From: Escherichia coli
GTDB lineage: Bacteria > Pseudomonadota > Gammaproteobacteria > Enterobacterales > Enterobacteriaceae
DNA: 64,000 nt
Assembly: GCF_050920415.1 (NCBI RefSeq)
Contig: NZ_CP169309.1
Direction: 5' to 3' (one strand)
Position 1 is the stretch's first letter. Every line of letters starts with the position of its first letter. A model generated the notes under the pieces. The model saw nothing but the letters and a program-made list of their open reading frames with translations. It ran no database searches and had not been told where the DNA came from. Below, piece by piece: positions 2 through 62,634 of the stretch. The position numbers and the translations under genes are program-made.

Positions 2-850
2 CGATATCTGAAAATACAGGACACACGACTGAAAAATGGGGATATTGCAGCTACAACCCACAAAGAAAAAGCGCGAATGGCTGCATACCTGGTTTCCCGT
101 CTGGGAAACCACCCATTGAAAGAACTGGAAGTAAGAGACTTTGCATTAATACTGGACGAGTGGATGGATAAAGACATGGTCAGCACAGCGAGGGTAAATC
201 GCGGATTATGGGTTGATATTTATAAAGAAGCACAGCATGCAGGGGAAGTTCCTCCTGGATGGAATCCTCCGGAGGCTACCCGTAAACCGATCCCTAAAGT
301 AACCAGATCCAGACTTACCCTGGAAGACTGGCAAAAAATTTACAATGCAACACCAGAAAAACACTTTATCCGTAACGCAATGCTTCTTGCGATTGTCACT
401 GGTCAGCGCCGTGATGACATTTGCCATATGCGTTTTTCAGATGTGTGGAACGAACACTTGCATATCACCCAGGGAAAAACCGGAATGCGTCTGGCGTTAC
501 CGCTTACACTACGCTGTGATGCCATTGGTATAACGTTAAAAGAAGTTATTGATGGATGCCGAGACAGAATATTAAGTCCATATCTAATCCATAGTCGGCA
601 CCAGAAACAACCAAAGCCGATGAGTAAAGACAACCTGAGCGACTACTTTGCCAAAGCACGGGATCTGGCTGGGATAATTCCACCAGCAGGAAAAACCCCG
701 CCAACATTCCATGAACAACGCTCTCTATCAGAACGGCTGTACCGTGCACAAGGTATCGATACAAAAACATTACTGGGACATAAAGTCCAGGCAACTACCG
801 ATCGCTATAACGATACTCGAGGTCAGGAATGGGTTAAGTTGGTTGTTTGA
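2..850 (+). CDS. int: Tyrosine integrase, lambda Int family (C-terminal catalytic portion; 5' end outside window)
   Basis: Frame is open from the window edge to TGA at 848-850; sequence aligns with the lambda Int C-terminal domain (VTGQRxxD, HExRSLSxRLY, LLGH, Y..D.RG.EW motifs including catalytic Arg and Tyr). Confidence 0.9.
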   Translation, partial: RYLKIQDTRLKNGDIAATTHKEKARMAAYLVSRLGNHPLKELEVRDFALILDEWMDKDMVSTARVNRGLWVDIYKEAQHAGEVPPGWNPPEATRKPIPKVTRSRLTLEDWQKIYNATPEKHFIRNAMLLAIVTGQRRDDICHMRFSDVWNEHLHITQGKTGMRLALPLTLRCDAIGITLKEVIDGCRDRILSPYLIHSRHQKQPKPMSKDNLSDYFAKARDLAGIIPPAGKTPPTFHEQRSLSERLYRAQGIDTKTLLGHKVQATTDRYNDTRGQEWVKLVV

Positions 851-938
851 CAAAAATAACCATCCGGGATTATAGTCTGCGCACGCCAGCAAAATCTGGC
901 GTCGGGATTGGCGTCCCGGATAACATCACAACGCATAG

Positions 939-957
939 CCGCGTTTGCGGTTTTTTT
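939..957 (+). terminator. Putative weak intrinsic terminator downstream of int (4-bp GC stem, 7-T run)
   Basis: ccgc-gttt-gcgg followed by ttttttt about 90 nt after the int stop; stem is short so strength is uncertain. Confidence 0.3.
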
Positions 958-1056
958 GCGTTAAGCATTGCCACATTCGCATTATGGTGGGGCGTGCAGG
1001 GGCGGAGAAATCCGCGCCGGGTTTTGTGATGACCGGTTACGCCAACCCTGTACGTC

Positions 1057-1107
1057 TCACCACCTCCCTGATTGGCGTCAGAGGTGGTGATCATCCAATT
1101 AATTGGA
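1057..1107. promoter_or_regulatory. Operator-like symmetric elements upstream of rha: 10-bp inverted repeat with 14-bp spacer plus a 12-bp perfect palindrome overlapping the rha ribosome-binding site
   Basis: TCACCACCTC (1057-1066) and GAGGTGGTGA (1081-1090) are exact reverse complements; CCAATTAATTGG (1095-1106) is a perfect palindrome, with GGAG at 1105-1108. Confidence 0.35.
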
Positions 1108-1117
1108 GTCATCACAT

Positions 1118-1675
1118 ATGAATACAGCTATAACTTTTCCTAACGAGTCACCAAAAGTCTTTTTCAAAGATGGTCGCTTGGTTACCACCTCTCAAGCTGT
1201 TGCCGACTACTTCGATAAACAACATAAACACGTTTTAGCTAAGATTGACGCACTCGACTGCTCGCCCGAATTTACATCAGCCAACTTTTCGTCCGATGTT
1301 CAGACTGTCGAAATTGGCAACGGCGCAGAACGTGAATCACGATGCTACCTGATCACAAAAGACGGCTTCATGTTCCTCGTAATGGGATTTACTGGCAAAA
1401 AAGCAGCCAGACTAAAAGAAGCTTACATTGCAAAATTTAACGCAATGGAGGAAGAACTCCACAAACGCCCACCAGCAGCGCAGCAAACCTCGTCAGAAGA
1501 TGTCGGTTGCTCGTTGTTAATCCATTTCAATAACCACGGTCAGGTTGAGTTTACGGAAAAAGTCCCAGCCGACGCAATGGTGTGCACCCTCGAGCGTTTT
1601 AAGTTTTATCTGGAACAGCAAGGCTGGATAGTTGCCCGTAAGGAGCAACTGTTGGAAAGGTTAATGTCGCTTTAG
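1118..1675 (+). CDS. rha: Rha-family phage regulatory protein (antirepressor-like)
   Basis: 185-aa product with an N-terminal Rha/pRha-like domain (DGRLVTTSQAVADYF..KxHKHVL..I, KDGFMFLVMGFTGKKA); ATG at 1118 has GGAG 9 nt upstream; the ORF-track start at 1103 is TTG. Confidence 0.8.
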   Translation: MNTAITFPNESPKVFFKDGRLVTTSQAVADYFDKQHKHVLAKIDALDCSPEFTSANFSSDVQTVEIGNGAERESRCYLITKDGFMFLVMGFTGKKAARLKEAYIAKFNAMEEELHKRPPAAQQTSSEDVGCSLLIHFNNHGQVEFTEKVPADAMVCTLERFKFYLEQQGWIVARKEQLLERLMSL

Positions 1676-3623: not shown

Positions 3624-4666
3624 AAAAATGGTCACGCCACCTGCTCGCGGCGGGTGCTCTGGCACTGGGCATGAGCGCCGCTCACGCCGATGACAACAAC
3701 ACGCTGTATTTCTACAACTGGACCGAGTACGTGCCGCCAGGACTGCTTGAACAGTTCACCAAAGAAACCGGTATTAAGGTTATCTATTCGACTTACGAGT
3801 CGAACGAAACCATGTACGCGAAGCTGAAAACGTACAAAGACGGTGCCTATGACCTGGTGGTTCCTTCAACCTATTACGTCGATAAAATGCGTAAAGAAGG
3901 GATGATCCAGAAGATCGACAAGTCGAAGTTAAGCAATTTCAGCAACCTCGATCCAGACATGCTCAACAAGCCGTTTGACCCGAATAACGACTATTCCATT
4001 CCGTATATCTGGGGTGCGACGGCGATTGGCGTTAACGGTGATGCGGTGGATCCGAAATCTGTCACCAGCTGGGCCGATCTGTGGAAACCTGAGTACAAAG
4101 GCAGCCTGCTGCTGACCGACGATGCCCGTGAAGTGTTCCAGATGGCGCTGCGCAAACTGGGCTACTCCGGTAACACCACCGATCCGAAAGAGATTGAAGC
4201 TGCGTATAACGAGCTGAAAAAACTGATGCCAAACGTAGCGGCGTTTAACTCCGATAACCCAGCTAACCCGTACATGGAAGGCGAAGTTAACCTCGGCATG
4301 ATCTGGAACGGTTCCGCTTTCGTTGCACGCCAGGCGGGTACGCCAATTGACGTGGTATGGCCGAAAGAAGGCGGCATTTTCTGGATGGACAGCCTGGCGA
4401 TCCCGGCAAATGCCAAAAACAAAGAGGGCGCGCTGAAATTGATCAACTTCCTGCTGCGCCCGGATGTGGCAAAACAGGTTGCTGAAACTATCGGTTATCC
4501 AACGCCAAACCTCGCCGCGCGTAAGCTGTTAAGCCCGGAAATAGCGGACGACAAGACGCTCTACCCGGATGCTGAAACCATTAAAAATGGCGAATGGCAG
4601 AATGACGTTGGCGCAGCCAGCAGCATTTATGAAGAGTATTATCAGAAGCTGAAAGCAGGACGTTAA
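3620..4666 (+). CDS. potD: Spermidine/putrescine ABC transporter periplasmic binding protein PotD
   Basis: 348-aa product with signal peptide; matches PotD. Confidence 0.95.
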   Translation: MKKWSRHLLAAGALALGMSAAHADDNNTLYFYNWTEYVPPGLLEQFTKETGIKVIYSTYESNETMYAKLKTYKDGAYDLVVPSTYYVDKMRKEGMIQKIDKSKLSNFSNLDPDMLNKPFDPNNDYSIPYIWGATAIGVNGDAVDPKSVTSWADLWKPEYKGSLLLTDDAREVFQMALRKLGYSGNTTDPKEIEAAYNELKKLMPNVAAFNSDNPANPYMEGEVNLGMIWNGSAFVARQAGTPIDVVWPKEGGIFWMDSLAIPANAKNKEGALKLINFLLRPDVAKQVAETIGYPTPNLAARKLLSPEIADDKTLYPDAETIKNGEWQNDVGAASSIYEEYYQKLKAGR

Positions 4667-19417: not shown

Positions 19418-19499
<82 letters not shown>

Positions 19500-38490: not shown

Positions 38491-38520
38491 AGAAAAAGGC
38501 AGCCTGTGGTTGCCTTTTGC
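38491..38520. terminator. Terminator-like hairpin with flanking A/T tracts in the yceD-yceF divergent region
   Basis: aaggcagcc-tgt-ggttgcctt with one G-U pair; A-run before and T-run after. Confidence 0.3.
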
Positions 38521-38650
38521 CAATAATTCGCACACATTGCGGGTTACTGCTTTATTTTCGTTCAGTGCTGATAACGAACATCAACCTGCAAAACGAAGCG
38601 CATAGTTTAAAATGGCTATCATCAATACGCTATATCTGATGGAAAAAAAT

Positions 38651-39235
38651 ATGCCTAAACTTATTTTAGCCTCCACCTCGCCCTGGCGCCGCGCGCTACT
38701 GGAAAAACTGCAAATCTCTTTTGAATGTGCAGCACCAGAGGTCGACGAAACCCCACGCAGTGACGAATCACCGCGACAGTTGGTGCTTCGACTGGCGCAG
38801 GAAAAAGCGCAATCTCTGGCGTCACGTTATCCGGATCATTTAATTATTGGTTCAGACCAGGTATGTGTTCTTGATGGCGAAATCACCGGTAAACCGTTAA
38901 CGGAAGAAAATGCCCGTCTGCAATTACGCAAAGCCAGCGGCAATATCGTCACCTTCTATACTGGACTGGCGTTGTTTAATTCGGCGAATGGGCATCTGCA
39001 AACAGAAGTGGAGCCTTTTGACGTCCATTTCCGTCACCTGAGCGAGGCGGAGATTGATAATTACGTGCGTAAGGAGCATCCCCTGCACTGCGCGGGTAGC
39101 TTTAAGAGTGAAGGATTTGGCATTACGCTGTTTGAGCGTTTAGAAGGGCGTGACCCTAACACGCTGGTTGGTTTACCGCTAATCGCGCTGTGTCAGATGT
39201 TACGTCGGGAAGGGAAAAATCCGCTAATGGGATAG
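38651..39235 (+). CDS. yceF: Maf-family nucleoside triphosphate pyrophosphatase YceF
   Basis: 194 aa from ATG at 38651 ([14 protein letters not shown]). Confidence 0.93.
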
Positions 39236-40517: not shown

Positions 40518-40878
40518 GTTTCCGTGTCCATCCTTGTTAAAACAAGAAATTTTACGGAATAACCCATTTTGCCCGACCGATCATCCACGCAGCAATGGCG
40601 TAAGACGTATTGATCTTTCAGGCAGTTAGCGGGCTGCGGGTTGCAGTCCTTACCGGTAGATGGAAATATTTCTGGAGAGTAATACCCAGTCTGTTTCTTT
40701 GATAATTGCGCTGTTTTTCCGCATGAAAAACGGGCAACCGACACTCTGCGCCTCTTTGAGCTGACGATAACCGTGAGGTTGGCGACGCGACTAGACACGA
40801 GGCCATCGGTTCACACCCGGAAAGGCGTTACTTTGCCCGCAGCTTAGTCGTCAATGTAAGAATAATGAGTAAGTTACG
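40518..40878 (+). promoter_or_regulatory. rne long structured 5' leader (autoregulatory), approximate extent
   Basis: About 570-bp non-coding gap before rne; leader length of about 361 nt is from established knowledge, exact 5' end not determined here. Confidence 0.5.
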
Positions 40879-62529: not shown

Positions 62530-62634
62530 TCACGAGGGCGCATTTGCGCCCTTTATTTTTCGTGCAAAGGAAAACGTTTCCGCTTATCCTTTGTGTCCGG
62601 CAAAAACATCCCTTCAGCCGGAGCATAGAGATTA

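Follow-up and report, generated by a model that had tools for sequence, protein, structure and literature searches.

The perfect inverted repeat and the perfect palindrome found shortly 5' of the rha start codon (ATG at 1118) in this Escherichia coli sequence are, with a probability that we put at about 80%, RNA elements that belong to the downstream target region (a2 to b2) of a C4 module of the phage P1 immI type, located in the rha leader. The region is of a known kind, a leader with the targets a2 and b2 of a C4/IsrK antisense RNA module; what is new here is a specificity allele that controls a Rha-domain gene. By homology and prediction, the mechanism is most likely a translational control of an antirepressor-like gene resembling that of P1 immI or of Gifsy-1 IsrK. 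Positions are given throughout for the window, by which we mean the whole 64-kb stretch of DNA that was analysed.

Both symmetries described in the sequence-only reading were confirmed by direct reading and by script. The left arm of the inverted repeat, TCACCACCTC (1057-1066), has its exact reverse complement, GAGGTGGTGA, at 1081-1090, and the two are separated by a 14-nt spacer, CCTGATTGGCGTCA, so that the 10-bp repeat is perfect. The 12-bp palindrome CCAATTAATTGG (1095-1106) is likewise perfect and overlaps the GG of GGAG (1105-1108), the Shine-Dalgarno (SD) sequence of rha. The repeat is unlikely to have arisen by chance: perfect 10-bp inverted repeats with a spacer of 3-20 nt occur at seven loci in the window versus 1.2 per dinucleotide shuffle, the whole pattern with up to three mismatches occurs once in the window versus 0 in 100 shuffles, and folding of the repeat as RNA gives -19.5 kcal/mol (z = -4.2). 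The palindrome by itself is within chance expectation, with 12 perfect 12-bp palindromes in the window versus 20 +/- 4.7 in shuffles and a hairpin of just -3.5 kcal/mol (z = -2.15). It is meaningful only in context, as the tip of a longer hairpin that covers the ribosome-binding site (RBS) and that has structural counterparts in homologs. A third copy of the left arm, TTACCACCTC, lies with one mismatch within the rha coding sequence (1182-1191); pairing of this copy with the right arm GAGGUGGUGA is conceivable too, and it is probably a chance occurrence.

The window starts within a phage integrase gene (to 850), and potC and potD begin at 2829. A related E. coli genome carries a complete lambdoid prophage which ends in the order xis, int, C4/IsrK module, two small ORFs, potC. 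The near-consensus promoter-like site at the end of the integrase gene is the sole strong one, lies directly 5' of position 1 of the Rfam isrK model (883) and is presumed to be the promoter of the whole module (Table 1); none was predicted beside the inverted repeat or the palindrome. Downstream of it, the IsrK-like RNA has three hairpins and finishes in an intrinsic terminator, as expected of an IsrK locus (RF01394), and carries a1 and b1, the decoy or target sites which in RF03163 stand on the same transcript as C4; b1 covaries with the C4 loop b'. The C4 RNA itself displays the long closing stem (985-1001 with 1046-1062), the two internal hairpins and the single-stranded a' (1038-1045, with ACGCCAA at 1039-1045) of RF01695. 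Its b' loop (1021-1032) pairs through 1025-1033 (UGUGAUGAC), and its predicted fold (-47.4 kcal/mol, z = -5.9) is identical to that of the Rfam model. Downstream again, a2 and b2 are complementary to a' and b', respectively, and b2 is positioned at the first RBS that follows. When the duplexes were restricted to the loops, since whole-molecule RNAduplex of C4 against its targets over-extended, energies of -15.5 (a':a1), -12.2 (b':b1) and -13.8 kcal/mol (b':b2) were obtained. Rfam found no second C4 module in the 64-kb window.

Table 1. Features of the C4/IsrK-type module and of rha in the window.
Feature	Position	Strand	Remarks
Sigma-70 promoter-like site	847-876	+	TTGACA-18-TATAGT, 11/12 matches; near-consensus
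c4-a1b1 (Rfam RF03163)	870-922	+	51.9 bits, gathering score 46.7
IsrK-like small RNA, a1b1 region (Rfam RF01394)	883-957	+	76.9 bits, gathering score 50
5' hairpin of IsrK-like RNA	883-902	+	
a1 hairpin of IsrK-like RNA	903-918	+	a1 UUGGCGU at 908-914
b1 CAUCACAA	924-931	+	Complementary to C4 b'
Intrinsic terminator ending the IsrK-like RNA	937-957	+	Terminator scan
C4 antisense RNA (Rfam RF01695)	980-1067	+	75.9 bits, gathering score 45; full-length model match
45-codon ORF over the C4-like RNA	984-1121	+	TGA overlaps rha ATG (ATGA)
Predicted mature C4-like RNA, 79 nt	986-1064	+	Ends set by analogy with the annotated P1 c4 RNA (GGUGGGG...GCCACC)
Inverted repeat, two-tier hairpin presenting a2	1057-1090	+	Right arm GAGGUGGUGA at 1081-1090
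a2 UUGGCGU	1072-1078	+	Loop/apical region of the inverted repeat; complementary to C4 a' ACGCCAA
Predicted RBS-sequestering hairpin	1084-1115	+	GUGGUGAU (1084-1091) with GUCAUCAC (1108-1115)
Palindrome CCAATTAATTGG	1095-1106	+	This allele's version of the variable hairpin between a2 and b2
b2 GUCAUCACA	1108-1116	+	Between SD and AUG of rha; perfect 9-nt complement of 1025-1033
rha, 185 aa, N-terminal Phage_pRha domain	1118-1675	+	Pfam PF09669, E = 9.5e-27

The flagged motifs fall into place on this map. The left arm of the repeat starts with the 3'-terminal 8 nt of the predicted mature C4 and adds two further nucleotides (UC); by its sequence, this arm provides the closing stem of C4 with its 3' strand and tail. 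The spacer holds an inner stem (about 1068-1072 with 1077-1081). Homologs of rha are named "Rha family transcriptional regulator" or "ORF6N domain-containing protein" by PGAP and are annotated as antirepressor or Rha in phage records, and an antirepressor role for Rha here is putative. Beyond rha, a bidirectional terminator (1686-1706) divides the gene from two minus-strand ORFs (1712-2209 and 2212-2490) that precede potC and are without a significant Pfam family. The first of these is coiled-coil-like with a hydrophobic C-terminus, and both are probably prophage cargo. The remainder of the window is ordinary E. coli chromosome, in which other known RNA elements were seen (naRNA4, SraB, the rne 5' UTR and the PyrC leader, at 19421-19496, 38489-38657, 40518-40854 and 62585-62634).

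Homologs of the locus came from blastn of phage records (277 records), from a pattern scan of viral contigs, of which about half of the matches were chance occurrences in unrelated coding DNA and were filtered out, and from five diverse phage records taken from the blastn matches together with phage P1, taken by accession. Every one of 26-27 distinct b' loops finds a perfect complement of 6-11 nt at its own RBS, with a mean in exact-complement counts of 8.5-8.6 nt for cognate versus 3.9-4.05 nt for non-cognate pairs. The complement of b' to b1 of its own locus is weaker (6.9 nt versus 3.9 nt non-cognate). In addition, a', a1 and a2 switch together between subfamilies (UUGGCG, UUUCCAC, GUGGAAA, UUCGAA and UUCGCAG, with UUGACAG in P1). 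This covariation implies that the main regulator would be loop b' of C4, acting in trans or in cis on b2 at the RBS.

The sequence-only reading had made both motifs depend on being conserved in homologous rha loci, and this is borne out for the repeat, as a hairpin, and fails for the palindrome, as a sequence. All 29 distinct versions of the repeat that were extracted fold as a two-tier hairpin with an outer CACCACC/GGUGGUG stem. In an alignment of 27 distinct homologs, 93.7% of cells are paired versus 84.1 +/- 1.0 in shuffled alignments, and the covariation score is 0.237 versus 0.103; none of 500 shuffles reached either value, and slid controls dropped to 28-71% paired. All three pairs of the inner helix have compensatory changes. 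As the search pattern fixed CACCACC, the outer left arm, support for the outer stem comes from the right arm, whose GGUGGUG is retained in 27 of the 27 homologs, and from the comparison with P1; the terminal pair changes from U-A to C-G in two sequences. The architecture of the module, the complementarity and covariation of its sites and the conserved a2 hairpin are thereby demonstrated at the level of sequence comparison.

Beyond the right arm the picture changes. Homology to phage records in blastn stops at 1090-1098, at the end of the right arm, and what follows is an allele-specific segment made up of a hairpin and b2, which explains why the sequence of the palindrome is unique to this allele. 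Homologs of other specificities lack that sequence and have at its position unrelated sequences which are likewise hairpin-forming. Whereas b2 in the window is placed 3' of the SD, it overlaps the SD in most homologs. Of 5426 complete E. coli genomes, 445 (about 8%) carry the module at 95% identity or more, and ETEC1730 is identical from 937 to the rha start.

Folding of the rha 5' region, a check proposed in the sequence-only reading, buries the SD. The minimum-energy structure of 980-1125 (-65.3 kcal/mol) has C4 closed and a small a2 hairpin on the inner stem. In it the right arm also pairs (1084-1091 with 1108-1115), the palindrome sits on top (stem 1094-1098 with 1103-1107) and the GGAG lies inside; pair probabilities of this RBS-covering hairpin are 0.67-0.90. 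The leaders that follow C4 in 43 homologs behave alike, with a mean z of -3.0 and a mean pairing probability in the SD region of 0.78. The suggestion that the motifs form an RNA hairpin sequestering the RBS is upheld, then, for a predicted helix between the right arm and b2 with the palindrome at its tip, but not for the inverted repeat itself, which leaves the RBS uncovered, its left arm being part of C4 and its loop displaying a2. Sequestration of the SD by the right arm, b2 and the palindrome, with the inverted repeat as an alternative helix, is what the folding predicts. Forcing the full repeat in the intact leader costs 3.5 kcal/mol, and in the ensemble its outer stem is a minority state, the pair probabilities ranging from less than 0.01 to 0.27, so that the perfect 10-bp helix may rarely form. 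When the C4 5' strand is absent, the repeat forms in the predicted structure and b' pairs with b2 in cis; the full 10-bp helix is predicted only where the left arm has been released by the C4 5' strand or was never bound by it. In a subgroup of homologs (L006, L007, L011, L015, L018 and similar sequences), the 3' flank of a2, AAAUUGGCGUUUCC, pairs with the SD region GGAGGCUGCC, which means that the SD is sequestered there by a helix other than that of the window. In this subgroup, C4 on a2 might free the SD while b' blocks it.

The P1/P7 immI region is reported by Citron and Schuster in 1990 to hold a c4 antisense RNA and the sites a1, b1, a2 and b2, which are said to control icd-ant. The annotated order in the P1 record NC_005856 is a1, b1, c4, a2, b2 and icd, with b2 at the icd RBS. 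Part by part, the window matches this layout: a promoter, a 5' hairpin, an a1 hairpin, b1, a terminator-like hairpin, a tRNA-like C4, an a2 hairpin to which the C4 3' strand contributes, then a small hairpin, b2 at the RBS and an operon that in the window is putatively of antirepressor type. The two C4 RNAs share their fold and their pairing sites (single-stranded a' and a hairpin loop b'), along with the UUAU|GGUGGGG junction at the 5' end and CCACC at the 3' end. The inverted repeat has its counterpart in P1 in the C4 3' strand CCUGCCACCUG, which pairs with the downstream CGGGUAGCAGG around a2; the arm sequences are other ones, and three pairs of the hairpin are compensatory relative to the window. 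The counterpart of the palindrome is the small hairpin CAGGUU-guua-AACCUG between a2 and b2. The two systems differ in their a and b sequences and hence in specificity, in the regulated gene (a Rha-domain protein directly in the window, icd and then ant1/2 in P1), in the upstream ORF, which in the window lies over C4 (orf45 type), in the place of b2 (between SD and AUG in the window, on the SD in P1) and in setting (a lambdoid prophage at potC, with the module between its int and attR, versus a plasmid prophage). P1 has a C1 operator at the c4 promoter, 5' of a1, whereas no C1-type operator was identified at the promoter of the window. The C4 RNA of P1 represses icd/ant via sites around the RBS and is a substrate of RNase P (PMC12197685, PMC8198154, PMC11143913), a processing for which a passage of PMC11143913 cites Hartmann 1995.

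The second relative is the isrK-orf45-anrP operon of Gifsy-1. It is transcribed from the isrK promoter into a long transcript that is translationally silent; short IsrK RNA acting in trans switches on orf45, to which anrP is coupled (PMC4825925; Hershko-Shalev et al. 2016). Two processed species, of about 180 nt and about 80 nt (STnc1160), were found, and IsrK activation was attributed to orf45 translation with no structural change at the anrP RBS (PMC4825925). From the promoter to the right arm, Gifsy-1 and the window share about 75% nucleotide identity, an IsrK-like RNA with a terminator, and the invariant blocks TCACCACC, GATTGGCGTC and GGTGGTGAT. The C-terminal ~67 aa of Rha resemble Gifsy-1 AnrP, and the N-terminal domains of the two downstream proteins differ, as do the specificities of b', b1 and b2 (CGGUGAU/AUCACCG in Gifsy-1, UGUGAUGAC/GUCAUCACA in the window) and the sites of the module, which follows Q in Gifsy-1 and lies between int and attR in the window. 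No isrJ was found after rha by Rfam in the window. The published Gifsy-1 structure model covers nt 1-180 and stops within the left arm, leaving out the inverted repeat, the hairpin equivalent to the palindrome and b2; the end of the ~180-nt RNA coincides with the predicted 3' end of C4 in that arm. The authors of the Gifsy-1 study also regarded IsrK as a structural homolog of the SeqA RNA of P4 (PMC4825925). The CI RNA of satellite phage P4 is similar to the module of the window in being a processed small RNA cut from a transcript with complementary sites on both sides (seqA, seqC); it leads to premature transcription termination, however, whereas in the window and P1 the downstream site overlaps the RBS. 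No Rfam match to the P4 CI RNA model was reported for the window.

By its sequence the locus is one transcription unit comprising an IsrK-like a1b1 RNA with its terminator, a tRNA-like C4, a leader and rha. By analogy with P1 and Gifsy-1, read-through transcripts would yield a C4 RNA of about 79 nt, with its 5' end made by an RNase P cut at U985/G986 and its 3' end, near C1064, falling within the left arm. After folding or excision of C4, the right arm is predicted to pair with b2, with the palindrome stacked atop and the SD buried. C4 could then dock on a2 and b2 through a' and b' and block 30S binding, so that the antirepressor-like Rha would be off. The short a1b1 RNA could compete for a' and b' or open the structure, turning translation on; relief may come from this RNA and/or from orf45 translation. 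The experiments on P1 and Gifsy-1 are what suggest the processing, the occlusion and the relief. A model of C4 repression does not readily accommodate the activation in Gifsy-1, in which the structure at the anrP RBS was seen to stay the same.

We tentatively consider that the leader may be a four-strand RNA switch with the 10-bp repeat as a functional alternative helix, a plausible scheme that we hold to be possible and not probable. Its strands would be the C4 5' strand (1), the left arm, that is the C4 3' strand (2), the right arm GGUGGUGA (3), and b2 with the RBS (4). In the OFF state, 1:2 and 3:4 would be paired, with C4 folded and the RBS buried; in the ON state, 2:3 would form the inverted repeat, freeing the RBS and giving access to the start of orf45. 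In this scheme the right arm would be an internal imitation of loop b' of C4, and the IsrK-like a1b1 RNA would trip the switch by sponging or by strand invasion. If true, such a switch would unify the P1 repression and Gifsy-1 activation models and explain why GGUGGUGA is invariant across alleles with differing specificity sites.

A competing thought, and one that we take seriously while doubting it, is that the 10-bp repeat is a by-product which at no time forms in vivo. The C4 stem alone would then constrain the left arm, and the right arm would be kept solely for pairing to b2 or for some other role, the arms being complementary because resemblance to GGUGG is required of the right arm and of the C4 5' strand alike. 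The rarity of the outer pairs in the predicted ensemble is in keeping with this, processing at the 3' end of C4 would part the arms, and in several homologs the right arm pairs with the region before the AUG. But the retention of GGUGGUG extends to homologs whose minimum-energy fold lacks such pairing, as in the AAAUUGGCGUUUCC group, P1 has altered both arms in compensatory fashion, and the change of the terminal pair also speaks for a helix.

It is improbable that the leader is purely cis-acting, sequestering the RBS constitutively or in a temperature- or translation-coupled manner, with the complementarity to C4 incidental. Folding does predict burial of the SD by the leader alone, the long Gifsy-1 transcript is silent by itself and needs orf45 translation, and the orf45 counterpart of the window ends in ATGA on the rha start. 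Incidental complementarity, however, cannot explain how 26-27 independent b' alleles match their own RBS, it leaves the parallel covariation of b1 and a1/a2 without explanation, and the orf45 frame is not kept among homologs.

That same frame bears on the proposal that protein coding by the 45-aa ORF (984-1121), and not RNA structure, is what has been conserved, which we regard as very unlikely. The ORF is intact, it equals Gifsy-1 orf45 in length and shares its ATGA overlap with the downstream start, and orf45 translation was demonstrated in Salmonella (PMC4825925). Against this, no SD was visible in the sequence 5' of the ATG at 984, and in homologs the ORFs from the conserved AUG are closed by a stop at 15, 33, 35, 38 or 40 codons or continue into the gene that follows. 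Coding as the cause of the conservation was rejected on the finding that the frame is not kept among 51 homologs: frames that are broken or fused to the downstream gene place the conservation at the RNA level. The Salmonella authors, too, found the nucleotide sequence of orf45 conserved and the amino-acid sequence not (PMC4825925). In many homologs the conserved AUG is in frame with the downstream gene, with 46 codons free of stops, which suggests a possible N-terminally extended isoform of the downstream protein.

The sequence-only reading had also offered a repressor operator pair, that is, DNA sites at which a prophage repressor bound to the inverted repeat and/or the palindrome blocks rha transcription. 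Both motifs are perfectly symmetric and lie just 5' of a regulatory gene, and P1 does have a C1 operator at its c4 promoter; that operator, though, is at the promoter 5' of a1 and not at this position. The motifs here are inside the transcribed leader, some 180-220 nt 3' of the only good promoter-like site (847-876). As to the further motif copies that the same reading proposed to look for, neither the repeat nor the palindrome recurs in the window. (A search with single arms gave just scattered one-mismatch GGTGGTGA-like matches in chromosomal genes.) What homologs conserve in the inner stem is pairing, maintained by compensatory changes, and not the sequence of half-sites, the palindrome sequence is not kept across specificity alleles, and the left arm is wholly accounted for as the C4 3' strand. 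Repeated half-sites near a promoter and conserved as sequence, the marks of a protein operator pair, were not found, and we consider operators at this place highly implausible. Least credible of all is that the repeat ends transcription ahead of rha as an intrinsic terminator or attenuator stem, since the GC-rich 10-bp stem, for all its position between the small RNA genes and rha, is followed by UCAUCCAAUUAAUU with no U-tract 3' of 1090, lacks in this way the stem-plus-U-tract make-up of an intrinsic terminator, and was not reported by the terminator scan.

The IsrK/C4 module is a mobile cassette that takes differing prophage positions (L001, Gifsy-1; L127, Stx2a_1447; L002; L129; L130). It follows Q in Gifsy-1 and cII in an Stx2a phage; in prophages at potC it lies between int and attR, and in those integrated at ompW it is at the end. 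In some viral contigs, such as L058 (5545-5568 and 6393-6416), L079 and L087, two C4 modules with different b' loops lie less than 1 kb apart, and in two cases a' differs as well (CGCCAA versus CUGCGAA); one phage therefore has two RNA specificities. A degraded prophage of E. coli 2013C-3181 (L130, around 4100-4240) carries a decayed copy of the same allele as the window, with the orf45 AUG changed to UUG, G to U in a', G to A in the right arm and C to A in b2. PGAP calls proteins over the IsrK/C4 RNA, namely an "ash family protein" of 91 aa (L129, 3985-4260) and a "hypothetical protein" of 44 aa (L130, 4106-4240). Such genes are likely an over-annotation of structured RNA.

C4/IsrK modules gate antirepressor-type genes, and hence prophage induction, in E. 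coli, in Shiga toxin phages and in Salmonella. The many b'/b2 and a'/a2 alleles resemble RNA-based immunity specificities and could be used to predict cross-regulation among prophages. For annotation, the "ash family" and hypothetical ORF calls over this stretch coincide with structured RNA. The region studied here lies just past the part modelled experimentally in Gifsy-1, and the pairing of the right arm with b2, together with the inverted repeat, provides concrete candidates for how the RBS of an antirepressor stays silent and gets released.
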